Source: Clostridia bacterium
GTDB lineage: Bacteria > Bacillota > Clostridia > Oscillospirales > Acutalibacteraceae
NCBI GenBank assembly: GCA_017621885.1
Contig: JAGASD010000048.1
Coordinates: 7,013 to 71,012 of the forward strand
Length of the DNA: 64,000 nt
Direction of reading: 5' to 3'
Shown in pieces: positions 2,937 to 50,156 of this stretch; position 1 is the first letter of the stretch, and the number at the start of each line of letters is the position of its first letter. The position numbers and the translations under genes are program-made. The notes under the pieces were generated by a model. It was not told the origin of the DNA. It saw nothing but the letters and a program-made list of their open reading frames with translations, and searched no databases.

Positions 2937-3012
2937 TGGTCCGAGTGGCGAGACTTGAACTCACGGCCTCTTGACCCCCAGTCAAGCGCGCTACCAACTG
3001 CGCCACACCCGG
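2937..3012 (-). tRNA. tRNA-Pro (anticodon GGG), CCA encoded
   Basis: The reverse complement folds by hand as a 76-nt cloverleaf. Acceptor is CCGGGTG/CACTCGG, D arm GCGC-AGTTGGTA-GCGC, anticodon arm CTTGA-CTGGGGG-TCAAG and T arm GTGAG-TTCAAGT-CTCGC, ending ACCA. Confidence 0.9.
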
Positions 3013-19932: not shown

Positions 19933-19964
19933 ACGGCGTTGTGTTCGTGGGAACACAACGCCGT
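19933..19964 (-). terminator. Intrinsic terminator of the aspS-gat operon
   Basis: 14-bp stem ACGGCGTTGTGTTC/GAACACAACGCCGT with a T-rich tract on the minus strand. Confidence 0.75.
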
Positions 19965-19970
19965 AAAAAT

Positions 19971-21380
19971 TTACTTATTAAGCTCTGTTTCTAAAAGTGT
20001 TCTGATAACTGCGGGGTCGCCGTTACCTTTAAGCTCACGCATTATAAGACCAAACAAAGCCTGCATAGCCTTTGTTTTACCGCCCTTATAGTCAGCAACA
20101 ATTTTGTCATTATCAGCAATTGTTTTCTTAACTGTGTCAAGAATGAAGCCCTCATCAATTTTCTGATTAAGGTTGTTTTCTTCACAGAAAGCATCAACCT
20201 GGACGTCTTTTTCAAATACAGCTGAAAGAACTTTTTTACCTGCTGCACGGGTGATTTCACCGCTTTCAACAAGTGTAATAATTCTTGCAAGCTTATCTGC
20301 GCTGATGTCAAGTGATGTGATTTCAAGACGCTTCATAATACCCATACACTCAGTAAGAATCCATGAAGCAACTGTTTTTGCGCTGCAGCCTGAAGCAACA
20401 ACCGCATCAAATACTTCGCAAAGCTTACGGTCGGAAGCAAGTACAGCAGCTTCTTTTGCGGCAATACCCATATCCTCGTAGTATTTTGTCTTTTCGTCTG
20501 CTGTAGCAGGCATACTCTTTCTTATTTCCTCAAGCCACGCATCATCAATAACAATTGGCATAACGTTGGGGTCGGGGAAATAGCGATAATCTGCGGCAGT
20601 TTCTTTGTTACGCATGGGGAACGTACGTCTTTTTACGTCGTCCCAACGGCGTGTTTCCTGAACAAGTATTTCAGTATGACGCTCAATAGCGTCAACGTGG
20701 CGAACCTTTTCAAATTCGATTGTGTCTTTAATATCAGAAAGTGAACTCATATTCTTGATTTCTGAACGAACACCGAATTCTGTGGAGCCTTCAGGACGTA
20801 CTGAAATGTTAACGTCGCAACGCATAGCGCCTTCTTCACATTCGGAAATACCAGCAAACTGAAGGCTTGATTTAAGCTTTTTAAGGTAAGCAATAACCTC
20901 ATCTGAAGAACGGAAATCAGGCTTTGTAACAATTTCAATAAGGGGAACGCTTGTGCGGTTGTAGTCAACAAATGATGTATTCGTTGCTTCGTCATGAACA
21001 AGCTTACCTGCGTCTTCTTCAAGGTGAATCTGCTTGATACCGATTTTTCTTCCGTTAATATCAACGCTGCCTTCAACGCAGATGGGGTTAAACCACTGTG
21101 TTGTTTGGTATGATGCGGGAAGGTCGGGGTAGTAGTAGCTCTTTTTATCAAAGGTTGTATACTGATTTATTTTGCAATTAAGCATAAAGCCTGCTTTTAC
21201 CGCAAGTTCAATTGCGTGCTTGTTAGTAACGGGAAGCATACCGGGCATACCGCAGCAAGCAGGACAAACACAGTCATTGGGCTCTTTGGGGCTTGAATGA
21301 CCGCCACATGAACAGAAAAGCTTTGAATCAGTTGAAAGCTCAACGTGAGTTTCAAGACCTATAACAAGTTCGTATTTCAT
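19971..21380 (-). CDS. gatB: Asp/Glu-tRNA amidotransferase subunit B
   Basis: VIGLETHVEL, LEEDAGKL, RCDVNISVR, ETRRWD and DYRYFPDPN, plus a YqeY-like tail. ATG 21380 follows GGAGG. The track start at 21386 is TTG. Confidence 0.9.
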   Translation of the reverse strand: MKYELVIGLETHVELSTDSKLFCSCGGHSSPKEPNDCVCPACCGMPGMLPVTNKHAIELAVKAGFMLNCKINQYTTFDKKSYYYPDLPASYQTTQWFNPICVEGSVDINGRKIGIKQIHLEEDAGKLVHDEATNTSFVDYNRTSVPLIEIVTKPDFRSSDEVIAYLKKLKSSLQFAGISECEEGAMRCDVNISVRPEGSTEFGVRSEIKNMSSLSDIKDTIEFEKVRHVDAIERHTEILVQETRRWDDVKRRTFPMRNKETAADYRYFPDPNVMPIVIDDAWLEEIRKSMPATADEKTKYYEDMGIAAKEAAVLASDRKLCEVFDAVVASGCSAKTVASWILTECMGIMKRLEITSLDISADKLARIITLVESGEITRAAGKKVLSAVFEKDVQVDAFCEENNLNQKIDEGFILDTVKKTIADNDKIVADYKGGKTKAMQALFGLIMRELKGNGDPAVIRTLLETELNK

Positions 21381-21382
21381 TT

Positions 21383-22582
21383 TCAAGCCTCCTTCTTTTC
21401 TACACTGTGAGCAATGCTCAGAAGTGTGCTTTCTTTGAATGAATCCGCAATAAGCTGAACACCGCCGTTAACCATAGCAGGAAGACCTGTAATTGAAGGT
21501 ATAGCTGTGTAAAGACTTTCATCATATACCTTTTTGAAAGCATCAGAAAGGTCGTATTTTTCAAAGCTTAGCTTACTGCAAGGGGGTGTGATGATTGCAT
21601 TATAAGAAGAAAGAACTTCCTTTACTTTATCAATAATCACTCTGCGAAGACGTAAGCTTTTATCGTAGCAAGCTTCGTATTTACCTTTTGCAAGTACGTC
21701 CGAACCATAGATTATGGTTGCCTTTGTAAGGAAGCCGAAGGCTTCTGTTCTGCTCTTTACGTAAAGCTCATCAATGTTTTTGTACTGAGGTGTACGGTAG
21801 CCGTATTTAACACCGTCAAAACGTGAAAGATTGTTGGTTGTTTCTGCAGAAAGAAGAATCTGCCAAGCGGTCTGTGCCGCAAAAACAAGGTCAAGAGAAA
21901 TTCTTTCAACCGTCGCACCTTTTTCTTCAAGTGCTTTGATATATGCATCAATTTTAGCCTTTACTTCGTCAGATGCTTTGTCATAAAGCTCGTTAATAAC
22001 GCAAAGCTTCATTGAAGAAACATCTTCTGTGAGGCTGTATTCATATTTTTCATCGGGAAGGCTTGTGCCGTCTTTGTCATCGTGACCTGCGATAACCGCA
22101 AGAACATCCTTTACTGACTGAGCGTCAGCGGCAGTAACACCAATCTGTTCACCTGAACAAGCACAAGCAATAACACCGTATCTTGAAACAGTGCCGTAGG
22201 TGGGCTTGATAAAGCTTACACCCGAAACGGCTGCTGCACGGCGGGGTGCACCGTTAAGGTCAACACCGATAGCGGCTTTAACCTTGCTTTCAGAAACAAG
22301 TGTTGCGGCTGCATTCTTGATTGCGCCGTTATCTTCTGCGTCTGCAAAATATGTTGTTTCGCCTAAAAGGTCGAGACCGAATTCACCAACGTTTGTTTTA
22401 CCTGAAATTTCGTATCCCTCTTTTTCAAGTCTTTCAACAACCTCTGCGCTGAAAAGGGGAGTGAAGTTTTCGAGCATTTTTGAACCTGCGGTAGCGGGTA
22501 TATCCTTTATAAGTATTGTATCATCAACAGCAATTGTGCCGTTTTTGTTGATTTCGTTAATATAATATTTCACTTGTTTCAC
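21383..22582 (-). CDS. GatA-like amidase-fold subunit with a degenerate catalytic triad
   Basis: Collinear with GatA (IKD..AGSKMLENF, GKTN.GEF, KPTYG.VSRYG, AGHD.KD.TS, LSRFDGVKYGYR). GGSSGGS is replaced by GAIKNAA and GSDTGGSIR by GVDLNGAPR. It sits between gatC and gatB and is about 85 aa shorter than typical GatA. Start is GTG 22582 or GTG 22573. Confidence 0.8.
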   Translation of the reverse strand: MKQVKYYINEINKNGTIAVDDTILIKDIPATAGSKMLENFTPLFSAEVVERLEKEGYEISGKTNVGEFGLDLLGETTYFADAEDNGAIKNAAATLVSESKVKAAIGVDLNGAPRRAAAVSGVSFIKPTYGTVSRYGVIACACSGEQIGVTAADAQSVKDVLAVIAGHDDKDGTSLPDEKYEYSLTEDVSSMKLCVINELYDKASDEVKAKIDAYIKALEEKGATVERISLDLVFAAQTAWQILLSAETTNNLSRFDGVKYGYRTPQYKNIDELYVKSRTEAFGFLTKATIIYGSDVLAKGKYEACYDKSLRLRRVIIDKVKEVLSSYNAIITPPCSKLSFEKYDLSDAFKKVYDESLYTAIPSITGLPAMVNGGVQLIADSFKESTLLSIAHSVEKKEA

Positions 22583-22583
22583 C

Positions 22584-24692
22584 TCACTTTACAAGTCTGG
22601 GTACCTGCCAGCTGTCCTCAGTGCTCTGAGGTGCACCGGCAAGAAGGTCTTTTCTGTCAAATGCCTGATTTCTTGCATCGTCACGAAGAACGTTTGTCAT
22701 AGGCATTACATATACCGCTGCTTCAACGTTTTCTGTGTCAATCTTTGCAAGCTCGGCTTCGCATTTACCCATATCATCAAGAATTGTCTGCATAGCTTTC
22801 TTTTCGTCTGCGGTAAACTGAAGCTGGTTAACCTGTTCAAGATCGTTAAGCTTACTCTCTTTTGTCTGAACCTTTGCTTTTGCAGAGCTCGTTGTAGCGC
22901 TGAATGCTGAACCATCGCCACCCTCGGAGCCGAGAACCTCTGCACCGCCTTTACCTCTGATGCTGACATTAGCTTCGTAAAGCTGAAGCTCTGTAGCCTC
23001 ACCGGGAGCGCTGAGCATCTGATCCTGGGCTGTACCGTCAAGGGGGAATGCAATAACATCTCTGATAGTTTCGGTTTCTGCAAGAAGCATAACAATTCTG
23101 TCAACACCGGGTGCCATACCTGCGTGGGGGGGAGCACCGAACTGGAAAGCGTTGTAAAGCGCACTGAAACGCTTTTTAACCTCATCCTCTGTATAACCTG
23201 CAATTTCAAAGGCTTTTCTCATAATTTCGGGGCTGTGGTTTCTTACAGCACCAGAAGCGAGCTCAATACCGTTACATACAAGGTCGTACTGATAAGCAAG
23301 AATTTCTGTGGGGTCCATAGTCTCAAGTGCTTCAAGACCGCCCTGAGGCATTGAGAAGGGGTTGTGTGTAAAGATAATTTTATCTGTGATTTCATCTCTT
23401 TCGTACATGGGGAAATCAACAACGAAGCAGAATTCAAAGGAATCATTGTTGATTAAACCAAGCTCGTTACCGAGCCATGTGCGGATAACACCAGCGTTTT
23501 TATCAGCAATATCGGAAATAGTGTCGCAAATGAAGAAGATTGTTTCGCCCTCTTTAACGCCTGTAAGCTCAACGATTTCTTTCATCTCTTCTTCGGTCAT
23601 AACCTTTGAAATGGGATCATCTTTAAACTCGTATGTTTCAGCATTAAGAAGAGTGATATGAGCAAGACCGGCCATTTTTGCCTGTTTTGTAGCAAAGTTG
23701 AGAGATTTGTCAAAGAACCATCTTTCGTTTTTGCAGGGGGCAACAATACCGCGAACCTGTTTGTTCATAAAGGGCTTGAACTTAACTCTCTTGAACATAT
23801 CTGTAAGGTCACAGATAACAAGGGGGTTACGAAGGTCGGGCTTGTCTGAGCCGTATTTTGCCATAGCCTCTCTGTAAGGGATACATCTGAAGGGTGTTTC
23901 AGTAACCTTTTTACCGGTAAAGGTACGGAAAATGTCGCTTACAACATCTTCGCAGACTTTAAGAACCTCTTCCTGAGTAGAAAAAGCCATTTCAAAGTCA
24001 AGCTGATAGAATTCACCGGGTGAACGGTCAGCACGGGCATCTTCATCACGGAAGCAGGGGGCAATCTGATAATATTTATCAAAGCCTGAAACCATAAGAA
24101 GCTGTTTGAATTGCTGAGGTGCCTGAGGAAGAGCATAGAATTTACCGGGATGCTTACGGGAAGGAACGAGGAAATCTCGTGCGCCTTCAGGTGAAGAAGC
24201 GGTAAGAATCGGTGTCTGAATGTCAAGGAAGCCTCTTTCCTCCATAAGGCGTCTCATATGACCGATAACCTTTGAACGAAGGATAATATTATTATGCAAA
24301 GCAGGATTTCTTAAATCAAGGAATCTGTGTTTGAGTCTTAAATTTTCATTAGTGTCTTTTGCACCGATTTCAAAGGGGAGATCTCTGCTGCACACACCAA
24401 GAACAGTGAGGCTGTCTGCAATAAGCTCTACAAGACCTGTATCGATTTTGGGGTTAACTGTGCTTTCATCACGCTTTGAAACTGTGCCATGAACAGAAAT
24501 AACTGTTTCCTTGCTGATGCCTTTAAGAAGATTTTCATCGTGAACAACAACCTGAGTTACGCCTGTTTCATCACGCAAATCTACAAAAAGTACACCGCCA
24601 TGGTCACGAACAACATCAACCCAGCCGGCGAGTTCAACCTCAATACCGATGTGCATTTCTCTGATTTCGTTACAACGGTGAGTTCTGTACAT
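22584..24692 (-). CDS. aspS: Aspartate--tRNA ligase fused to a C-terminal GatC domain
   Basis: Residues 1 to about 585 form a bacterial-type AspRS with a GAD insertion (FRDEDARADR, GAPPHAGMAPGVDR). A G/S/A/K-rich linker lies at about 22851-22945. The last 88 or so residues (22587-22850) look like GatC (IDTENVEAAVYVMPMTNVLRDD...LLAGAPQSTEDSWQVPRLVK). Confidence 0.85.
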   Translation of the reverse strand: MYRTHRCNEIREMHIGIEVELAGWVDVVRDHGGVLFVDLRDETGVTQVVVHDENLLKGISKETVISVHGTVSKRDESTVNPKIDTGLVELIADSLTVLGVCSRDLPFEIGAKDTNENLRLKHRFLDLRNPALHNNIILRSKVIGHMRRLMEERGFLDIQTPILTASSPEGARDFLVPSRKHPGKFYALPQAPQQFKQLLMVSGFDKYYQIAPCFRDEDARADRSPGEFYQLDFEMAFSTQEEVLKVCEDVVSDIFRTFTGKKVTETPFRCIPYREAMAKYGSDKPDLRNPLVICDLTDMFKRVKFKPFMNKQVRGIVAPCKNERWFFDKSLNFATKQAKMAGLAHITLLNAETYEFKDDPISKVMTEEEMKEIVELTGVKEGETIFFICDTISDIADKNAGVIRTWLGNELGLINNDSFEFCFVVDFPMYERDEITDKIIFTHNPFSMPQGGLEALETMDPTEILAYQYDLVCNGIELASGAVRNHSPEIMRKAFEIAGYTEDEVKKRFSALYNAFQFGAPPHAGMAPGVDRIVMLLAETETIRDVIAFPLDGTAQDQMLSAPGEATELQLYEANVSIRGKGGAEVLGSEGGDGSAFSATTSSAKAKVQTKESKLNDLEQVNQLQFTADEKKAMQTILDDMGKCEAELAKIDTENVEAAVYVMPMTNVLRDDARNQAFDRKDLLAGAPQSTEDSWQVPRLVK

Positions 24693-24747: not shown

Positions 24748-24965
24748 GCTTTAAAAAATAAAAAATCCCGGGAATTATGCAAGATAATTCCCGGGACGAG
24801 TTTTATAACCCGCGGTGCCACCCGTATTGATACAAATGTACCCACTCTTTTATTCAAAAATAAGCATAACCTGAAGTGTTCCCGAACTTACTACTCATCT
24901 GAAGCGCGCTTTCAGCCGATGACGCACTATCTCTGACAGACTTTCTACAAAAGCCGAGTCTTCGG
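24748..24965 (-). promoter_or_regulatory. T-box leader (tRNA-sensing riboswitch) with terminator/antiterminator
   Basis: Minus strand carries AGAGA and GGCTGAAAG Stem I elements, GGGAACAC in the candidate specifier region (24876-24883), the T-box sequence GGGTGGCACCGCG (24811-24823), and the terminator TCCCGGGAATTAT-cttgc-ATAATTCCCGGGA (24766-24796) plus a T-run. Confidence 0.8.
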
Positions 24966-24970
24966 TGAAG

Positions 24971-24999
24971 ATTTTATCAAAAATGTTTTCGGTTGTCAA
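24971..24999 (-). promoter_or_regulatory. Sigma-A-like promoter of the T-box/aspS operon
   Basis: Minus strand TTGACA, 17-nt spacer, TAAAAT. Confidence 0.6.
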
Positions 25000-27218: not shown

Positions 27219-27418
27219 TGAAAAAACCTCTTTTGTAAAGGAATATAATGCTAATGATTTTAACATTAAGCGATTAAAAAAACAAGAGGGTGTTTTTGTA
27301 TTTTAAGTTTTTTGTGTTGTTGACGGGGTATATGTAATGTGTTATATTGGTATTGGAAGATAAATAAATGAAAAAATCATAATTAAAATGATTTATGTTT
27401 GTTTTTGGAGGCTTAATT

Positions 27419-28831
27419 ATGGTTAGCTTTGATATTTTGCAAACAACTCTGAATGTAAGTATGTTTGAGATTGCTTTAGGATTTTTCAGATTTATTGTTG
27501 TTATTCTTGCTATTGTAATGCCGATGGTTTTGTTGGTGTTAATGGCAAAATCAATAAATAAACGCAAAAAGAAAAGTGTGTTTATTTGTGTTATAAGTCT
27601 GGTGTTGTCGATTGTCTTTGCATATATAGTTTTTACTGATATAAAATTACCTGCAAGAGTTGACATCGAATCAATAAAAACATATCACGAAACATTGTTG
27701 TCAACGGAAAGTGGTTATTATGAATTTGATACGGGGTATATTGATGGCTCAATGCGTGTATCTGATTTAAATGATGATTATACACCCGTATTAGATTACG
27801 CTACAGATTACAAAAAATACAAGTCGCACGAAATAGACGAATACACAAAATGCTATATTTCACCTGTTATTTGTTATAAAGATGATAGGTTATCTCATCT
27901 CTGGGAGCCTTTGGGTTCATACGGTACAATTGTAATTGAAAGCAAAGATAAACTGATAGAAATTAAGTATAATTACATAAATAGTGGAGTTGCTGATATC
28001 CTTTGGCCAATTTCTAATCCTCAAACATTCTACAGACCTGAAATTGACTTTGGAGATTTAGTGACAACTTTAGGTTTTGAAAACAAATTAAGTACTACTA
28101 AAATGCGTTACACGAATGAAATCAGCGATTTCGGTGTTGATTTCAAAGTTGAAGATGGTGCGTTGTATTTAAAAGGGGAGAATATTGATTACTTTTTTGA
28201 AGATGCATCTTCTCTAAATCCCAACCAATGGAATAAGCTGACCTTTAAAGAAAAAATTATTCATATTTCCGCTTGTGGCGGAACGCTCCTTTATCTCACT
28301 GATGAGGGTGATGTTTACGGTTTAGGAAATACTGAGGGAATTTTTTCTGAATACGACCCCAACAATCCCATACAGTATATTACAACTCCTGAAATTTTAT
28401 TTGAGGATTGCAAATACGTTTCGGTTGGTTCAAAATTTGCAATTTTCCTCAAGAATGATAACACACTTTGGTTTTTAGGTGAAAGCAAAAACGGACAAAG
28501 CACAAAGATTGCTGATAGAATAGGGGAGCCTTTGAAAATTGCGGATAACGTTTATTTTGCCGAAGCATTCGGTTATACCTGCGGTTGGATTGATGAGCAT
28601 CAACAATTGCACCTTTGCGGTGATAATTCTTACGGTCAGATCGGTAACGGTAAAAAGGGGAACGGTTACCCCACAACATACGAATCAATTGTTACAACAC
28701 CTTATATTGCGTTGCGCAATTGCGCGAACTTTACTTCGGCAGACGGTGAAAGCGTTATTGCATTAAGAACAGACGGAACAAAATATGCCTGGGGCGGCGA
28801 ATACGGACCTGCACCTAAAAATATCGGATAA
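27419..28831 (+). CDS. Membrane-anchored protein with C-terminal RCC1-like beta-propeller repeats
   Basis: Two N-terminal TM segments. Repeats include DVYGLGNTEG, LWFLGESKNGQ, LHLCGDNSYGQIGNG and KYAWGGEYG. ATG 27419 follows GGAGG. Confidence 0.65.
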   Translation: MVSFDILQTTLNVSMFEIALGFFRFIVVILAIVMPMVLLVLMAKSINKRKKKSVFICVISLVLSIVFAYIVFTDIKLPARVDIESIKTYHETLLSTESGYYEFDTGYIDGSMRVSDLNDDYTPVLDYATDYKKYKSHEIDEYTKCYISPVICYKDDRLSHLWEPLGSYGTIVIESKDKLIEIKYNYINSGVADILWPISNPQTFYRPEIDFGDLVTTLGFENKLSTTKMRYTNEISDFGVDFKVEDGALYLKGENIDYFFEDASSLNPNQWNKLTFKEKIIHISACGGTLLYLTDEGDVYGLGNTEGIFSEYDPNNPIQYITTPEILFEDCKYVSVGSKFAIFLKNDNTLWFLGESKNGQSTKIADRIGEPLKIADNVYFAEAFGYTCGWIDEHQQLHLCGDNSYGQIGNGKKGNGYPTTYESIVTTPYIALRNCANFTSADGESVIALRTDGTKYAWGGEYGPAPKNIG

Positions 28832-30007: not shown

Positions 30008-32353
30008 TTAAACGCGAACAATTTCGCTGTTGAGGTCTGCGAGACCGTCTGTAAGTGCTGAAGCAACACCCTGACCAAGAGAAATGAGCTCGTGGTAGTG
30101 GTTTGCGGGGTCACCCATTGTGAAATCGTTATCGGGAACAACGTAACCGATAGCATCGTTCATAAGACCGAAGCACTGAATATCTTCGCCAAATATAGAG
30201 CATGCAGCCTGGCTGGGATAGTTCTTACCGGTAATTGAATAAGGTCCGTTAAGAGAAATACCGTTGGGAGCAACAAGGTCCTGACAAATTTCACCGGGAA
30301 GGAAAACTGTCTTGAAGCAGTCACCGATTTCCATATAACCGATTTCGGTGATTGTTGCATAAGAGCCATCTTCATTAGCTATAACAACGTAGTTAGCCAT
30401 GTTGAGCTTACCAACAGCTTCAATAAGTGCGCTTGAAACGGGGATTTCAACCTGCTTGAGGTAAAGGTTAAGATAAGGTGCAACCTCAACCTCTTCAACA
30501 GCTTCCCAATCCTCGTACCATGTTGTGTAGGCGGGGTTGATGGGCATCATATAATCTTCGTAGATTTTACCGTCCGAAGATTTTACATATGTTGTGTAAA
30601 CTGACTTTTTGCTTGCGCCTTCCATGGGGATTTCAATAAGGGCTGCGCCGTTATATGCAATTTCATACATATCGGTTTCATCATTTACGCCTGCGGTAGC
30701 CTTTGTTTCGTCAACGAAAATTTCAACGGGATTACCGTCAGTATCGGTTACTGCGCAAACACCCTGCAAGGGTAATGCTGTAACTACGTATAATTCGGGG
30801 TCATATTCGTATTCAAATACAACTCTGTCATCACATTTAACGCTTATAGTGTTCAATGTGTCGTCGCCATCTACAGAGAAGGGGGCGTTAATGTTGTGGA
30901 TTGTAATATCCATACCTTCAATTGTAAGGATGGTCTTTACGTAATCAACGAACGAGTAATCGTAATCGTTAAATTCATTTTTGAGACTGCCGTCTTCATT
31001 GTAGATTGAAACTAATTCTGTGTTTTCTTCAACCTCTTTCCGGTTTGAAAGAACGTCATCAGCAAGGATTTCTTCTTCTGTAAGGTTCATTGAAAGAAGG
31101 ATTCTTGCAAGCTCGTAACCGAATCTCTGAGACTCTTCAACACGCTGATGTGTTTCAACGTTGTCACCTGTTGCGGAACGAGCCATGTAGATACCTGCAA
31201 TAGCACCCTGGAAGAACATAAAGTTGTAACCGTATTTTTCAAGGAACTGACCGCAGTAGAATACATAGTCACCGCTGATTTCTCTACCTGAGTTGCTTTC
31301 TGTGGGAAGACCTGCAACGTCGGGGTGAGCTGCAATGTTGAGAATCATAGTTTTCTTTGCTGAGTCATCATCAGGAGTGAACACGAATCTGGTGATATCT
31401 GTCATAGCAACCTGTGTTTCACCTGTGAATTCTTTGTAGCCATCTGCGTTTTCTTCGTAAATCATTTCACCTGAAGAAGGACGGTTTTTGTTCTGGAAAT
31501 ATTCCTGACCGATATCCTTTGTTGAATATGTAAGAACACCGGGCTGCATATCGTAGTATGCATCAACAAGTGCATCTGCAACTGTTTCTTTAAGGAATGC
31601 CATATATTCGGGGTTTGTACCCTGCTGAAGCTCTTCGTCAGCCTGTGTACCGCTGATGATACCGTTAGAAACGATCTTAGCAATGTTCTTTGTCCAGAGA
31701 CCTTCTGTATCAATACAGCTGTGTGTATGAGTAGAAGCAACGTTAATAGCAACGATGTTGTTTGCTACTGCAAAGTCAGCGAGAATAGCACGGATATCCT
31801 TAATATCAGCATTTGTTATACCGATACAGTCGATTGTTGCAAAAAGAACTGTGCCTTTATCTGTGCCGTCGTTGATAGCGATACATCTTACCTTCATATC
31901 GTCTCTGCCGAGGCCGGGGATCTGGGCGATACCTTCAACAACGTTTGTAAAGCCGTTTTCGGGAGCAATGTAACCACCGATATAGTATTCGCCGTTGTCG
32001 TAGTCTTCGGGGATAAGGCTTGCATTAGCGTAGCCGATGTTCCATCTGGCATCTTCTTCAGCTTCGCTTACAAACTCTTTGCCGATACCCTCATAATAGT
32101 TTTCATCGGCGAGTTCCAGGGCACTCTCTCTGTCCATGAATCCCGGTCCGTCGCCAAACAGACCTGCGAACAAGTCGAGAATGAACCTTAAAACGGTATC
32201 AATGATATCTGAGAAAATGATACCGATGGGATTTTCGCTGTCAATGATTGGGTAAGCACTTGAAGCACTTACTGTTACTGCGCCGAATGACGAGAATGCC
32301 AAAGTGAGGGCGAGAACAACAGCGATGAGTTTTGTTAATCTGCTCTTTTTCAT
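30008..32353 (-). CDS. Secreted neutral/alkaline-ceramidase-like hydrolase (paralogue 1, long form)
   Basis: Signal peptide (MKKSRLTKLIAVVLALTLAFSSFGAVTVSA). Motifs VASTHTHSCIDTEGLW, IAAHPDVAGL and NDAIGYVVPDNDFTMGDPANHYHELISLG. Family call rests on motif resemblance only. Confidence 0.5.
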   Translation of the reverse strand: MKKSRLTKLIAVVLALTLAFSSFGAVTVSASSAYPIIDSENPIGIIFSDIIDTVLRFILDLFAGLFGDGPGFMDRESALELADENYYEGIGKEFVSEAEEDARWNIGYANASLIPEDYDNGEYYIGGYIAPENGFTNVVEGIAQIPGLGRDDMKVRCIAINDGTDKGTVLFATIDCIGITNADIKDIRAILADFAVANNIVAINVASTHTHSCIDTEGLWTKNIAKIVSNGIISGTQADEELQQGTNPEYMAFLKETVADALVDAYYDMQPGVLTYSTKDIGQEYFQNKNRPSSGEMIYEENADGYKEFTGETQVAMTDITRFVFTPDDDSAKKTMILNIAAHPDVAGLPTESNSGREISGDYVFYCGQFLEKYGYNFMFFQGAIAGIYMARSATGDNVETHQRVEESQRFGYELARILLSMNLTEEEILADDVLSNRKEVEENTELVSIYNEDGSLKNEFNDYDYSFVDYVKTILTIEGMDITIHNINAPFSVDGDDTLNTISVKCDDRVVFEYEYDPELYVVTALPLQGVCAVTDTDGNPVEIFVDETKATAGVNDETDMYEIAYNGAALIEIPMEGASKKSVYTTYVKSSDGKIYEDYMMPINPAYTTWYEDWEAVEEVEVAPYLNLYLKQVEIPVSSALIEAVGKLNMANYVVIANEDGSYATITEIGYMEIGDCFKTVFLPGEICQDLVAPNGISLNGPYSITGKNYPSQAACSIFGEDIQCFGLMNDAIGYVVPDNDFTMGDPANHYHELISLGQGVASALTDGLADLNSEIVRV

Positions 32354-32600
32354 GTTGTTTTTGTCTCCTTTTACGTTGCCTTTTTCAAGACAACATTATT
32401 TGATACCATATTTTACTATATATATAATAAAAAATCAACTATCATTATAGCTAAATTCTTGCTCTATAGTTTAGTGTTTTGCACAAAAATCAATATCAAA
32501 TTCAATATGTTTGATTTATGAAATAATATGTATTGACAACGTCGCCTTTTTTGTGTAAAATGTTATGGAAATAATATGGTATCAAGGGGGATACTTCGTG

Positions 32601-33731
32601 ATGAAAAACAATAATTCTAACAGCAAAGCAACTGCACTTTTGGCATTGGGTCTTGCTACATGCGTTGTTATAGGGCTTGTATCAAGTACTGCCATGAAGC
32701 TTGCTTCTGCAACTGTTTTTATGAAAAACAGCAAACAGCCAACTAAAAATCCCGTTGTTGAATTGATAGAGGAAGCTATTGATACAATCATTCCCGAAAC
32801 ACCTTCGGTAACACCGCCTCCTGCAGATACAGGAAGCTCTTCTTCAGGTTCTTCAAGCTCTTCGGGCTCTTCAAGCTCTTCTGATTCCTCAAGCTCCTCA
32901 AGTTCATCAGATTCTTCATCTGAAACTACCACTGAGGCTCCTACAGAGGCTGAAACAAAAGCTCCCGAAACCGAAAAAGAAACCGAAGCTCCCAAGCAAG
33001 AGGAAGAAACAAAGGCTCCTGAAACCGAAGCTCCCGAAAAGGAAGAAGACACTACAGACCCCGTTGTTATTGCAAAACAGAATCAGGCTGTTGTTAAATT
33101 GTACAAGGATGTTCTTACTCGTGCAAAGCTTCCCGGCAAAGAGCCTTCCTTCAAAAAGGTTACATACAGATCTCTTGACAGAGCTTTCTGGGGTAGCTGG
33201 AGATATGAGGGCGTTGAAGAAAATAATGCAAGCTATTTTGTAGCAGAAGAAATCGCAAAGGCTAATCCCTTAGTTGTTCCCAAGGCAACAAAAACAACAG
33301 CTCTTGCTATAAATAACACTGCTTCTGCTTGCTTGCTTGATGTATCTAAGCTTGATGTTATTACAAAAGCCGTTAAATCAGCTTCAAAAGAAGTTCTTAA
33401 AGACGGTACTGTTAAGCTTGTAATCGTTCTTAACGATGAAGAAAATCCCACTCCCATCAAACCTACAGATAAAACTTCGGCAAGCTTCACAAGCGCAATG
33501 TTCCCGGTTGTTACAGCAGCTCAGGTAATGAAAGCGGTTGACGATAATAAAGTTGAATCTGTAAATCTTGTTTATTCTGATTGTTCGGTTGAGCTTGTTT
33601 ACAGACCTTCTAACGGTCAGATTGTTTCAATGAAGCAGGTTGTTAAATATGAGGCAGCTGTTGAACAAGGCTTTATAACAGCGAAAGGTACGGTTACAGA
33701 GGTTTCCGATTATACAAACTTCGTATATTGA
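32601..33731 (+). CDS. Membrane-anchored protein with a poly-Ser / TEAP-rich low-complexity linker
   Basis: ATG 32601 follows AAGGGGGA. One TM helix, then SSSSGSSSSSGSSSSSDSSSSSSSSDSSSE and (E)TEAP/K repeats, then a globular C-terminal domain. Confidence 0.6.
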   Translation: MKNNNSNSKATALLALGLATCVVIGLVSSTAMKLASATVFMKNSKQPTKNPVVELIEEAIDTIIPETPSVTPPPADTGSSSSGSSSSSGSSSSSDSSSSSSSSDSSSETTTEAPTEAETKAPETEKETEAPKQEEETKAPETEAPEKEEDTTDPVVIAKQNQAVVKLYKDVLTRAKLPGKEPSFKKVTYRSLDRAFWGSWRYEGVEENNASYFVAEEIAKANPLVVPKATKTTALAINNTASACLLDVSKLDVITKAVKSASKEVLKDGTVKLVIVLNDEENPTPIKPTDKTSASFTSAMFPVVTAAQVMKAVDDNKVESVNLVYSDCSVELVYRPSNGQIVSMKQVVKYEAAVEQGFITAKGTVTEVSDYTNFVY

Positions 33732-46913: not shown

Positions 46914-48356
46914 ATGGAGGATTATATTATGGGTGTTAATGAATTTGCTGCAAAAGCGGTTAGAAAAATCGGTAAAATGAGCTCAAAAAAGCTTATCAGA
47001 AAAGGTGTTAAAGCATCACCTCTTCCCAGACCCGAGCCTACAGTTATTAAGGGAGATAAATATTGTTGCGGTTACGCCGTAAGAGAAGTTATGCCCGATG
47101 ATATTCACGCGAAAAAATATTGGATTGCCGGCCACGGTATGGGCCACGTAATTGAAAAAGTTCACGACCCTGTTACAGTAAGTGCAATGTGGATTGGCGC
47201 AGATGATAACGGTGGATTTATACATATAAGCGCGGATATTATCGGTCTTACAAACTACGAGCTTAACATTGTCCGCGCACGTTTGAGTGATTTTATTGAA
47301 AAAAGCAAATGCGCAGGTGTGTTTGTTTCTTGTACTCATCAGCACGCAGGCTTTGATACTGTCGGTTATTGGGGTCAGCTTATGAAGCTTCAGAGCGGTA
47401 AGGACCCTGAATATATGGAAAAATTGCTTAGCTCACTTGAAGCTGTTGCACGTGAAGCATACGAAAACAGAAAGCCCGGCAAGCTTTATATCGGCACAGT
47501 AAGTGTTCCCGAAGCACAGTTCTGCAAACGCGAGCCTAATGCATTGCACGATGTTCTCACAAGAACAAAATTTGTTCCCGATGACGGTTCAACAGAAACC
47601 TGGTTCCTTAATTACGAGGCACATCCCAACACCTTGGGTGGCGACAACCGTGAGTGCGGTGCAGATTATCCTTATTGGCTCAGAAAATATATCAACGATG
47701 AAAAGACAGTTAACGTTCTTTTCGGTGTAGGTGCTATCGGTGCAGTTGACCCGGGTGATTTCTGCGATGATAAAAAAGAAAGAACACGTCTTGAAGGTCT
47801 TACCCTTGCAAAAGCATCTCTCGGTATCGACAATGATAAAGAAATGCCTGTTGAGATTACAGTTCTTCAGCATAAATACTACTCACCCGTTGATAACGGA
47901 CTTCTTGCTCTTATGGCAACAATCAATGCTTGTTCTTCACAGCGTTATCCTTGTGATAAGGGTGATTTAGGTCTTGCACTTCTTACGGAAATGGCTTACA
48001 TAAAGCTTGGTACACAGCAGATTTTGCTTCTGCCGGGTGAACCTTTCCCCGAGGTTATTTACGGTGGCGCCGCAGATGCTGATAAGTCCGCAACAGGTAA
48101 AGGTACTGAAATTAACCCAACTCCCATTATTGATATAGTCGGAGATAAGGATTTGCTCGTTTACTGCGTTACCAACGATATGACAGGTTACTGCGTAACT
48201 CCGAATGATTACATTCTTCATAAAACCCAGCCTTACATTGAGCAGGGTACAGATGTTTTCGACAGGAGACATTATCACGAAACAAACTCTTTAGGCTACC
48301 TCACAAACGAAACGATTGCCGAAAATGTTGCCGATATAATGAAAAGAGTGAAATAA
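46914..48356 (+). CDS. Cytoplasmic neutral-ceramidase-like hydrolase (paralogue 2)
   Basis: VSCTHQHAGFDTVGYWG, NYEAHPNTLGG and RRHYHETNSLGY align with the motifs of paralogues 1 and 3. No signal peptide. Confidence 0.5.
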   Translation: MEDYIMGVNEFAAKAVRKIGKMSSKKLIRKGVKASPLPRPEPTVIKGDKYCCGYAVREVMPDDIHAKKYWIAGHGMGHVIEKVHDPVTVSAMWIGADDNGGFIHISADIIGLTNYELNIVRARLSDFIEKSKCAGVFVSCTHQHAGFDTVGYWGQLMKLQSGKDPEYMEKLLSSLEAVAREAYENRKPGKLYIGTVSVPEAQFCKREPNALHDVLTRTKFVPDDGSTETWFLNYEAHPNTLGGDNRECGADYPYWLRKYINDEKTVNVLFGVGAIGAVDPGDFCDDKKERTRLEGLTLAKASLGIDNDKEMPVEITVLQHKYYSPVDNGLLALMATINACSSQRYPCDKGDLGLALLTEMAYIKLGTQQILLLPGEPFPEVIYGGAADADKSATGKGTEINPTPIIDIVGDKDLLVYCVTNDMTGYCVTPNDYILHKTQPYIEQGTDVFDRRHYHETNSLGYLTNETIAENVADIMKRVK

Positions 48357-48473: not shown

Positions 48474-50156
48474 TTGAATAAGCAAAAACAGAGGGAAATC
48501 CTTGATAAAACTATAAACGGTGCACTGAGAGCTTTTGCCGCTTCCGTTAAATCGGGTAATGAGGTCCTGACGTCGGATTCTTTTGTCACCGATAATTTCT
48601 ATATCGGAACGCCTGCATTTTTAAATGAATGTATCAGTAATTCCAAATGGAGTCTTGGCTTTGCGGATGTTGTTTTAACCCCTGTCGATTATAAAAAGCG
48701 CGAGTATTATATGGGTGGCTATATGGTTCCCGATAACAAGTTTAAAAACCTTGTTGAAGATGTTGTTGATAATATGATGGGACGTGCTGTTGCTCTTGAT
48801 GACGGTTCCGACAGAGGTGTATCTCTCTTTTGCACGATTGACTGTATCGGTATTGCGAACAGTGATATAAAAGAAATCAGAAAGCTTTTTAAAGAAAAGG
48901 CCGAAAGGATTTATCCCGATAAGAAAATTAACTCGATAAATATTTTTTCAACTCATGCTCACAGTTGTGTCGATACACAAGGCTTGTGGACTGAGTTTCC
49001 GTCAAAGCTTCTGAGAAATCTCAGAAGAAAATATACGGGCAAAGGTGTTCTTGAAAAGGGTGCGGATGAGCAGTATATGCGTTTTTTGTATGAGCGTGTA
49101 AGCGAGGCTCTTATGAATGCATTGGGCAATATGGTACCCGGTGAAATGAGCTTTGCCCGAAAGGATATTACCGAGGATTATTTTGTCAATAAAAACAGAC
49201 CCTCTGCAACGGGTATTGTTACGGATATCACAAGGCTTACCTTTACACCCGATGATATGAATAACACACCTACTATAATAGTTAATCTTCCTGCACATCC
49301 CGATGTTGCCGGATTGGCTGTTAAGGGTGAAAAGGGTTCAGGTCGTCGCCTTTCAGGTGAGTATGTGTATTATATGGGCGAAGTGATAAATAAAGCAGGA
49401 TATAACTTTATGTTTTTTAATGGTGCAATTTGTGCTATTTATATGTCCTGCGATAAGTCTAACGACGGCTTAAAGCTTAACCACAGATACGAAATGTCTG
49501 TACGTTTCGGTAGAGAAATCGGGAAAATTACCCTTTCTCTTACCAAAACACTTGATGAAATTAAAAAAGATAACCTGCTCTATGATGAGCAGGAAATAAA
49601 AAAAGAGGCCGAGCTTGCAAAAAGAAACGGCGGTAAATATACCCTTTGGTGTGAGAATTGGGAGCCGGTGCAGGAAATTAAAATTGATCCGATTCTCAAT
49701 ATCAGATTAAAACAGATTAAAATACCGGTAAAAAATAATCTCATGGTGGCGGTTGGCAAGCTGAAACTTGCCAACTTTAAGGTGATTTGTGAAGAAAACC
49801 AATACTATGTTTGGTCCGAGATAGGTTATATAGAGCTTGGCAAACAGATTAAAATCGCAATGGTCCCCGGTGAGTTTTGCTGTGATTTGTTAGTGGGCGG
49901 TGCATCCCTTTATGCTGAAGGTTCCGTCACCCATACTGATTTCGGACTTCCTGCACTTGGTGAAATATTCGGCGAAGACACAATTGTTTTCGGCCTTGCA
50001 AATGATGCAGTGGGTTATATTGTTCCGGATAACGACTATACAATGGGTGATCCGCAGCATCATTATCACGAGCTAATTTCATTGGGGTGTGAAACCGGTT
50101 CTTCTGTAATGAAAGGCTTTGTTGAATTATCCGGATTAATTAACGAAAATCGCTGA
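48474..50156 (+). CDS. Cytoplasmic neutral-ceramidase-like hydrolase (paralogue 3)
   Basis: FSTHAHSCVDTQGLW, NLPAHPDVAGL and NDAVGYIVPDNDYTMGDPQHHYHELISLG, closest to paralogue 1. The only available start is TTG 48474. It has no obvious SD and follows a weak hairpin plus T-run (48444-48473), so start confidence is low. Confidence 0.5.
   Translation: MNKQKQREILDKTINGALRAFAASVKSGNEVLTSDSFVTDNFYIGTPAFLNECISNSKWSLGFADVVLTPVDYKKREYYMGGYMVPDNKFKNLVEDVVDNMMGRAVALDDGSDRGVSLFCTIDCIGIANSDIKEIRKLFKEKAERIYPDKKINSINIFSTHAHSCVDTQGLWTEFPSKLLRNLRRKYTGKGVLEKGADEQYMRFLYERVSEALMNALGNMVPGEMSFARKDITEDYFVNKNRPSATGIVTDITRLTFTPDDMNNTPTIIVNLPAHPDVAGLAVKGEKGSGRRLSGEYVYYMGEVINKAGYNFMFFNGAICAIYMSCDKSNDGLKLNHRYEMSVRFGREIGKITLSLTKTLDEIKKDNLLYDEQEIKKEAELAKRNGGKYTLWCENWEPVQEIKIDPILNIRLKQIKIPVKNNLMVAVGKLKLANFKVICEENQYYVWSEIGYIELGKQIKIAMVPGEFCCDLLVGGASLYAEGSVTHTDFGLPALGEIFGEDTIVFGLANDAVGYIVPDNDYTMGDPQHHYHELISLGCETGSSVMKGFVELSGLINENR

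Follow-up and report, generated by a model that had tools for sequence, protein, structure and literature searches.

How does a tRNA-dependent amidotransferase obtain its nitrogen when the subunit that should release ammonia from glutamine has lost the residues for doing so? This question is raised by a locus of a Clostridia bacterium (Acutalibacteraceae; GenBank assembly GCA_017621885.1), which lies in a 64,000-nt stretch of contig JAGASD010000048.1 (positions 7,013 to 71,012), hereafter the window, whose own numbering is used throughout. Within it, the open reading frame (ORF) at 21383-22582 on the minus strand encodes a homologue of the amidase subunit GatA without the catalytic triad, which is named GatA* here and is encoded between a GatC domain and gatB, as in gat operons. 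To our knowledge, an ammonia tunnel links a glutaminase or asparaginase to a tRNA-dependent kinase in all GatCAB and GatDE enzymes characterised so far. The alignments, conservation data and predicted structure described below identify GatA* as a folded, selected pseudo-enzyme, and they lead us to lean towards a role as scaffold in a transamidosome that is specific for Asn, independent of glutamine and most likely supplied with free ammonia.

Both its sequence and its predicted fold mark GatA* as a GatA homologue. It matches the Pfam Amidase family with 175 bits, and its best sequence matches in the PDB, found with phmmer, are all GatA subunits (bacterial chains with E values of 1e-60 to 1e-46). 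Residues 17-397 align to residues 63-459 of Thermotoga maritima GatA, which agrees with the sequence-only reading, an earlier interpretation of the bare window, in that the protein is collinear with GatA over most of its length; KPTYGTVSRYG and NNLSRFDGVKYG are among the sequence blocks that have been kept. The AlphaFold2 model, computed from a 124-sequence alignment, reaches a predicted local distance difference test score (pLDDT) of 96.5 and a predicted template modelling score of 0.94, and Foldseek superposes it on the GatA chains of Aquifex, Staphylococcus aureus, Pseudomonas aeruginosa and T. maritima with template modelling (TM) scores of 0.91-0.93 and root mean square deviations of 2.2-2.8 Å. 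The protein nevertheless falls below the cutoff of the gatA equivalog TIGR00132 (267.3 vs 481.1 bits), and it is about 86-89 aa shorter than a typical GatA of 485 aa, close to the earlier estimate of about 85 aa. Most of this loss is accounted for by about 46 N-terminal residues of canonical GatA that have no counterpart, to which small internal deletions are added.

The active site was compared in a MAFFT alignment of the window protein with the 150 top-ranking representatives of a library whose sequences had been clustered at 50% identity, numbered after S. aureus GatA, in which 63 sequences with an intact Lys-Ser-Ser (K-S-S) triad were set against the triad-less ones. The roles of the catalytic residues in GatA have been described previously (PMC2330236, 10.1101/733030). 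Lys79, Ser154 and Ser178 are present in 63/63 canonical representatives, and the corresponding segments of GatA* are the following.

22520..22525, minus strand: codons of Asp20-Asp21, with Asp20 at the position of the catalytic Lys79 and Asp21 equivalent to the conserved Asp80 (HMMER, MAFFT)
22304..22330, minus strand: residues 85-93, NGAIKNAAA, in place of the Gly/Ser-rich PGGSSGGSA loop of cis-Ser154 (alignments)
22232..22267, minus strand: residues 106-117, GVDLNGAPRRAA, in place of the nucleophile loop GSDTGGSIRQPA (alignments)

In the phmmer alignment, T. maritima PGGSSGGSAAAVS is opposite NGAIKNAAATLVS of GatA*, and GSDTGGSVRQPA is opposite GVDLNGAPRRAA. The position of cis-Ser154 is a deletion in GatA* (Ile88/Lys89 region), and the nucleophile loop carries Ser178 to Ala112, Thr175 to Leu, Gly176 to Asn and Gln181 to Arg115. 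The sequence-only reading had proposed that GGSSGGS is replaced by GAIKNAA (residues 85-91), which is borne out by both phmmer and the 151-sequence alignment, and that GSDTGGSIRQP is replaced by GVDLNGAPRRA, which holds as well, with Ser178 corresponding to Ala112. The DNA that it quoted for the latter segment, GACCTTAACGGTGCACCCCGC, is indeed present on the minus strand, although its coordinates were one base short (22261-22241, not 22241-22260). It had further held that the triad Lys survives in an I-K-D motif, and here it was mistaken: HMMER and MAFFT both place Lys79 opposite Asp20, so that canonical V-K79-D-N aligns with the GatA* motif A-V-D-D-T, and the I-K-D of GatA* matches another K-D, which lies six residues further on and has no catalytic role (T-K85-D in canonical GatA).

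The changes extend to the glutamine pocket. Tyr309, Arg358 and Asp425, the substrate-binding residues of S. aureus GatA (10.1101/733030), are conserved at 94% or more in the 63-sequence intact set, and GatA* has Trp240, Thr289 and Ser356 in their places. The invariant Arg278 was considered as the equivalent of Arg358 and rejected, as the numbered alignment pairs Arg278 with Arg347 and Arg358 with Thr289; glutamine binding in the canonical mode was rejected on the same grounds, with Arg358 represented by Thr289 and all three binding residues replaced. Judged by these alignments, GatA* is unable to hydrolyse glutamine by the canonical mechanism, as had been surmised from the two lost Ser residues, and this route is ruled out more firmly than before because the triad Lys and the three glutamine-binding residues are lost too.

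An ortholog scan with one genome per species (loci L001-L018) found relatives of GatA* in 18 species-level genomes, all of them metagenome-assembled genomes (MAGs) assigned to Acutalibacteraceae, Oscillospiraceae, Eubacteriales or Clostridia, and many of them from yak, sheep and deer guts. The order AspRS-GatC, GatA*, GatB is the same in every locus as far as the contig extends, AspRS being aspartyl-tRNA synthetase. The sequence-only reading had left it to a survey of homologues whether the substitutions are shared or unique to one strain; Asp20, Asp21, Asp108, Asn110, Gly111, Arg114, Arg115, Trp240 and Ser356 are invariant in 18/18 orthologues, and Thr289 is kept in 17 of the 18. The stretch that replaces GGSSGGS is variable among them, with insertions and deletions, and position 112, the site of the former nucleophile Ser178, is occupied by Ala, Ser, Tyr or Phe.

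Ratios of nonsynonymous to synonymous substitution rates (dN/dS), calculated by the Nei-Gojobori method for twelve pairs, are 0.07-0.17 for gatA*, 0.02-0.14 for aspS-gatC and 0.01-0.13 for gatB. The gatA* gene is clearly under purifying selection, which is 2-5 times more relaxed than that on its neighbours in most comparisons. Strain-specific decay was rejected in view of the 18 species-level orthologues, their shared synteny and these low ratios. Because the fold is confidently predicted to be retained, the catalytic residues are lost and dN/dS remains at 0.07-0.17, GatA* can be classed as a pseudoenzyme, and the earlier proposal of a structural pseudo-enzyme thereby gains the backing of orthologues from 18 species.

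What such a protein might do is indicated by its operon, which consists of three genes in about 4.8 kb (AspRS-GatC fusion, GatA* and GatB), seen in the window as three head-to-tail minus-strand ORFs at 22584-24692, 21383-22582 and 19971-21386. Its parts, in the direction of transcription, are listed below.

24971..24999, minus strand: sigma-70-type promoter, TTGACA, 17-nt spacer and TG-extended TAAAAT (consensus scan, 11/12 matches)
24789..24978, minus strand: T-box leader (Rfam RF00230, 48.4 bits, E = 1.4e-9, in a 601-nt permissive local search)
24880-24878, minus strand: specifier codon AAC (Asn) in Stem I, followed by the purine A at 24877 (covariation, ortholog alignment)
24820-24817, minus strand: UGGC bulge of the T-box sequence (sequence)
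24765..24797, minus strand: 14-bp T-box terminator hairpin and U-run, with the 5' half of the hairpin overlapping the 3' half of the antiterminator (terminator scan, sequence)
22584..24692, minus strand: AspRS-GatC fusion, 702 aa (Pfam, NCBIfam, E. coli AspRS alignment)
21383..22582, minus strand: GatA*, 399 aa as ORF (Pfam, NCBIfam, phmmer, MAFFT, AlphaFold2, Foldseek)
19971..21380, minus strand: intact GatB, the kinase/transamidase subunit, 469 aa from ATG 21380 (Pfam, NCBIfam, PDB alignments)
19933..19964, minus strand: intrinsic operon terminator, a 14-bp stem with 8 GC pairs and a following T-run (terminator scan)

The position of the promoter is kept across the aligned upstream regions of the orthologous loci. 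The true start of GatA* is probably GTG 22573, which gives a protein of 396 aa and agrees with public gene calls; the TGA stop of the fusion is followed by a GAGGTG ribosome-binding site and then by this GTG, and the ribosome-binding site of gatB, AAGGAGG, sits within the 3' end of gatA*. This arrangement suggests translational coupling at both junctions. No further gene is conserved in the operon, no glutaminase gene is conserved beside it in the loci examined, and no canonical gatA, asnS, glnS, asnA/asnB or second aspS is found among the annotated ORFs, which cover part of the 64-kb window.

The sequence-only reading had assumed a separate gatC gene upstream of gatA*, which has to be corrected, since GatC is the C-terminal domain of the 702-aa fusion. 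The fusion consists of a bacterial-type AspRS with GAD domain (residues about 1-580; 22953-24692), a Gly/Ser/Ala-rich linker of about 30 residues and GatC (residues about 612-701; 22587-22859), and its architecture is that of an OB anticodon-binding domain, a class II AspRS core with the GAD insertion and a C-terminal GatC. Pfam matches are obtained for tRNA-synt_2 (372 bits), tRNA_anti-codon, GAD and GatC (37.1 bits, cutoff 23, at residues 626-695), and the NCBIfam aspS match reaches 738 bits, with 439 bits against E. coli AspRS; the GatC domain scores slightly under the cutoff of TIGR00135 (44.3 vs 47.1 bits). A bifunctional AspRS/GatC family is on record as NCBIfam NF009460 (PRK12820), and its domain order, AspRS and then GatC, matches that of the window protein. 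The score of 444.8 bits against a cutoff of 1379 marks the latter, by sequence, as a divergent lineage or an independent fusion relative to PRK12820. Literature searches aimed at an AspRS-GatC fusion found no description of one. The fusion is full length in every ortholog locus that holds the whole gene (11 of L001-L018). The AspRS part has His31 in R-D-H-G-G, where E. coli has Leu; we take His31 to be a mark of the non-discriminating AspRS of P. aeruginosa, and it is a lead rather than a test for the fusion. The last gene of the operon encodes an intact GatB, with both its catalytic and its YqeY tail domain, as the sequence-only reading had it: it matches GatB_N (360 bits) and GatB_Yqey (115 bits) in Pfam and NF004012 in NCBIfam (559 bits, cutoff 338), and it aligns over its full length to 3AL0_B and 3H0L_B, with 389 bits to T. 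maritima GatB.

The specificity of the operon is indicated by its leader. At the Rfam gathering threshold the sole match in the window is a tRNA, and the T-box was seen only in the permissive local search, in which it shows the expected order of elements, with GGGUGGCACCGCG upstream of a terminator hairpin, which shares sequence with the 3' strand of the antiterminator and is kept in the orthologues with compensatory changes. The same leader is present in L001, L006, L013 and L016. The Stem I region is gap-free across 103 nt in 14 sequences, and the specifier and following purine, AAC-A, are invariant in 14/14; the specifier belongs to the 3' side of the loop directly over the basal helix, where the sequence is N-A-A-C-A. 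A four-helix model of Stem I has 97.3% of cells paired and compensatory changes in 9/21 pairs, a result equalled by 0/500 shuffles, and a register shift of one strand drops the pairing to 24-48%. Among more distant relatives, the canonical T-box of L026 scores 124.5 bits, above the gathering score, with AAC-A at the model's specifier position, and that of L028, with 64.7 bits, also has AAC-A. The UGGC bulge is complementary to a G73 discriminator, which is the base expected in tRNA(Asn). At the base of the window leader no K-turn can be recognised, and transcription apparently starts only a few bases before Stem I.

By established T-box logic, this leader would switch the operon on when tRNA(Asn) is uncharged, which points to the operon as a route that supplies Asn-tRNA(Asn). 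It can be assigned to Asn-tRNA(Asn) synthesis by this leader taken together with the AspRS-GatC fusion, two features that the sequence-only reading had missed. In Clostridium acetobutylicum, an aspS-gatCAB operon under T-box(Asn) control has been described (Saad et al. 2012, J Biol Chem 287:20382, as cited in PMC4206432).

The reading that we moderately favour over the others is that GatA* acts as a scaffold within such a route. In this mechanism the AspRS part of the fusion would be non-discriminating and charge tRNA(Asn) with Asp, and the fused GatC tail would tether the GatA*-GatB module to the synthetase, a presumed built-in transamidosome in which the fusion would fix one module per AspRS subunit. 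The intact GatB would phosphorylate and then amidate Asp-tRNA(Asn), and GatA* would keep the GatA fold as the structural partner needed by GatB and GatC. A GatA* without the triad, the glutamine-binding residues and the N-terminal helices would yield no ammonia from glutamine, so the amide nitrogen would most likely come from free NH3/NH4+, and the synthesis of Asn-tRNA(Asn) would become glutamine-independent. Ammonia is abundant in rumen and hindgut contents, and the use of free ammonium, an option that the sequence-only reading had raised, plausibly fits the gut or rumen origin of the genomes, by analogy also with ammonium chloride data on the GatFAB amidotransferase. Purified GatFAB transamidates with 20 mM NH4Cl; truncations in the N-terminal domain of GatF, which is linked to the stability of the GatA active site, lower the glutamine-dependent activity, and one such truncation has an NH4Cl-dependent activity above that of the full-length enzyme (PMC4027206). 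Furthermore, GatA depends on GatC for its folding and for binding GatB, and ammonia passes from GatA to GatB through a tunnel (PMC2330236); the former dependence would explain why a dead GatA is retained.

Several points weigh against this reading. The T-box of the window lies under the Rfam gathering score (48.4 vs 93 bits), for which the covariation and the supra-threshold relative L026 provide backing. Free ammonia is a poor donor for wild-type GatCAB and is not known as an efficient one. In addition, an acidic residue at position 79 (Asp/Glu) occurs together with Arg/Lys at 181 in 32/43 sequences, vs 3/18 without acidic 79, counts that are not phylogenetically independent, and 52/63 canonical GatAs have Gln at 181; this suggests that a compensating salt bridge between Asp79 and Arg181 (Asp20/Arg115 in the window) closes off the former active site and does not leave an open entry for ammonia.

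Among the alternatives, a GatA* that is scaffold only and receives its ammonia from a separate protein is unlikely, though it comes closest; the partner would be either an unrelated glutaminase or asparaginase docked on the complex or a canonical GatA from another locus that swaps into it. This alternative gains from loci L024 and L025, where a triad-less gatC-gatA*-gatB set runs straight into a canonical gatC-gatA-gatB set downstream, with which it overlaps, so that both kinds of GatA can coexist in one cell. A specialised paralogue beside a normal gatCAB, which the sequence-only reading had named as an alternative, has its parallel in the distant relative L024. Set against this, the operon has its own GatC and GatB, which co-vary with GatA* (GatB1 and GatB2 of L024 are 63% identical), no glutaminase gene is conserved beside it in the loci examined, and GatC wraps the GatA-GatB interface (PMC4027206), by which a bound GatA* would block a second GatA. 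At the other extreme, the idea that gatA* is a pseudogene in decay, or that it arose as an artefact of assembly or annotation, hardly deserves credence: its faster evolution, 2-5 times that of the neighbours in most comparisons, and its label as a hypothetical protein in the NCBI annotation would agree with it, but the gene has an unbroken reading frame in 18 species genomes and hundreds of metagenome clusters, dN/dS is 0.07-0.17, the fold is predicted with a pLDDT of 96.5, and the start and stop codons are set for translational coupling with the neighbours.

GatA* might also have been neofunctionalised, with a remodelled pocket (Asp20, Asp21, Asp108, Asn110, Arg114, Arg115, Trp240) that binds or hydrolyses another small molecule; the pocket would then be a new nitrogen donor site or would gate GatB as an allosteric sensor. 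The invariance of the replacement residues in 18 orthologues speaks for such a function, as does the specific, non-random change of Lys79 to Asp/Glu in 38/41 members of the triad-less cluster described below; it is nonetheless rather improbable, for there is no conserved nucleophile at 178 (Ala, Ser, Tyr and Phe occur in the orthologues), the former cis-Ser154 loop is variable and contains indels, and the co-occurrence of Asp79 and Arg181 is more simply explained by a structural salt bridge. Less probable still is a complex that no longer amidates and instead serves as an Asp-tRNA(Asn)-binding or kinase module, which would for example sequester tRNA that is mischarged or proofread it, or acts in a process other than translation. 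In its favour, no experimental precedent for a glutaminase-less amidotransferase was found in the literature searched; however, induction of an Asn-specifier T-box by uncharged tRNA(Asn) follows the logic of a supply pathway, the catalytic domain of GatB is the most constrained in the operon and passes the equivalog cutoff, and a non-discriminating AspRS without amidation would give Asn-to-Asp mistranslation.

Beyond the window, dozens of other clusters of triad-less GatA are present in metagenomes. Among the matches listed, at least 120 clusters (90% identity) are 73-100% identical to the window GatA*, and a profile of diverse triad-less sequences gave another 120 best matches of about 392-403 aa, all from uncultured Bacillota. 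The K-S-S triad is present in 68 of the 150 best 50%-identity representatives. In a neighbour-joining tree, about 41 triad-less sequences, the window protein included, form one cluster of mostly N-terminally truncated proteins, in which position 79 is Asp or Glu in 38/41. Other triad-less sequences are interspersed among canonical GatAs, and the scattered P0187, P0209 and P0193 are full length and keep Tyr309, Arg358 and Asp425; this looks like several independent inactivations of GatA caught at different stages. The gene contexts of the more distant sequences are as follows.

L026, P0122: aspS, gatC, gatA*, gatB
L028, P0154: aspS, gatC, gatA*, after which the contig ends
L030, P0132: aspS, gatC, gatA*, gatB
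L023, P0125: gatC, gatA*, gatB
L027, P0158 (Peptococcaceae MAG): gatC, gatA*, gatB
L029, 8681-11927, P0280 (P0185 cluster): pcrA and ligA, then gatC, gatA*, gatB
L024, 5450-12016, and L025, 5419-11985, P0187: gatC1-gatA*-gatB1 overlapping canonical gatC2-gatA-gatB2

Thus aspS and gatC are separate genes in L026, L028 and L030. In the tandem loci L024 and L025, gatB1 overlaps gatC2 and the two sets are probably co-transcribed; the first GatA is full length, with Lys79 changed to Asp, GGSSGGS to AGAAAAA and Ser178 to Ala, and it keeps the glutamine-binding residues. The GatA of L029, a protein present on 78 blocks of the collection, has Gln79, Ala154 and Cys178, and this Ser-to-Cys change of the nucleophile might keep some activity; its pcrA-ligA neighbourhood is that of gatCAB in Bacillus subtilis. 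The named members of the group carry the labels hypothetical or "amidase family protein", with GatA used once, and the window protein is hypothetical at NCBI; there is no cultured representative among these named members, all of which are MAGs. A description of triad-less GatA was not found in the literature searched, outside which subscription papers mostly lay. We tentatively propose, with opinion nearly balanced, that triad-less GatAs may define a natural class of tRNA-dependent amidotransferases that is widespread in anaerobic Bacillota and depends on ammonia, not on glutamine. The glutaminase subunit would have become a pure scaffold several times independently in this class, and in the lineage of the window the system would in addition have been fixed as a covalent AspRS-GatC transamidosome controlled by tRNA(Asn).

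Comparison with known systems places the operon beside, and apart from, canonical GatCAB (S. aureus 2DF4, T. maritima 3AL0 and the P. aeruginosa Asn-transamidosome 4WJ3), with which it shares the C-A-B order, an intact GatB, GatC, the GatA fold and the association with AspRS, whereas GatA* lacks six functional residues and about 46 N-terminal residues, and GatC is fused to AspRS. Like the window operon, that of C. acetobutylicum combines AspRS and an amidotransferase set behind a tRNA(Asn)-responsive T-box in a Clostridia host, but its aspS and gatC are separate genes. Its GatA is said to be an active glutaminase. In carbamoyl-phosphate synthetase I of ureotelic vertebrates, a folded glutaminase-type domain has lost its catalytic residue, and the use of free ammonia has been proven biochemically. 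It is plausible, by analogy, to regard the system of the window as a GatCAB-type amidotransferase whose glutaminase subunit has turned into a scaffold, with carbamoyl-phosphate synthetase I as its nearest functional analogy; the likeness is functional only, since the latter has an unrelated fold (a class I glutamine amidotransferase, not an amidase-signature enzyme) and belongs to another pathway. Two further relatives illustrate how the GatA fold can be diverted. Tse8, a type VI secretion toxin of P. aeruginosa (10.1101/733030), is a GatA-like amidase-signature protein that also lacks the glutamine-binding residues of GatA and acts by binding the transamidosome and not as a catalyst; unlike GatA*, it keeps the catalytic triad, is delivered to other cells and is encoded outside gat operons. 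AtzE-AtzG (PDB 6C62) is an s-triazine amidase derived from GatA-GatC, a re-use of the pair outside its original role (Foldseek TM score of 0.80 to the GatA* model), but AtzE is an active amidase on a new substrate and has no GatB partner.

In the rest of the window, ORFs without a Pfam match at E <= 1e-5 are found at 30008-32353 (minus strand, 781 aa), 32565-33731 (plus strand, 388 aa), 46914-48356 (plus strand, 480 aa) and 48474-50156 (plus strand, 560 aa); the 781-aa ORF has no precomputed Pfam match in L019 or L022 either. The 478-aa product of 27395-28831 (plus strand) has a counterpart in L019 with WD40/RCC1-like repeats (PF25390, faint PF13540), which is unusual for a Clostridia chromosome. 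A tRNA-Pro(GGG) gene at 2937-3012 (minus strand) is the sole RNA gene of the window at the Rfam gathering score. Between 34000 and 64000 nearly all ORFs are on the plus strand and GC skew is steadily positive, which fits a leading-strand segment; the genes there include xseA, dxs, ispA-like and recN-like genes, a GH84-type beta-N-acetylglucosaminidase, phosphoglucomutase and a McsB-like arginine kinase.

To conclude, if the scaffold reading is true, the AspRS-GatC fusion would provide a ready-made transamidosome of fixed stoichiometry for structural work, and the operon would be a natural system in which to follow how ammonia enters and travels through the GatA-GatB tunnel. The proposed class of ammonia-dependent amidotransferases would be the tRNA-dependent counterpart of the split between AsnA (NH3) and AsnB (Gln) in free asparagine synthesis. 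As triad-less GatAs are labelled hypothetical, "amidase family" or, wrongly, "GatA", reconstructions from gut and rumen MAGs may miscall both the route to Asn-tRNA and its nitrogen source. Most generally, the coupling of glutaminase to kinase would be dispensable in vivo, and Asn-tRNA synthesis in these bacteria would be uncoupled from the glutamine pool.

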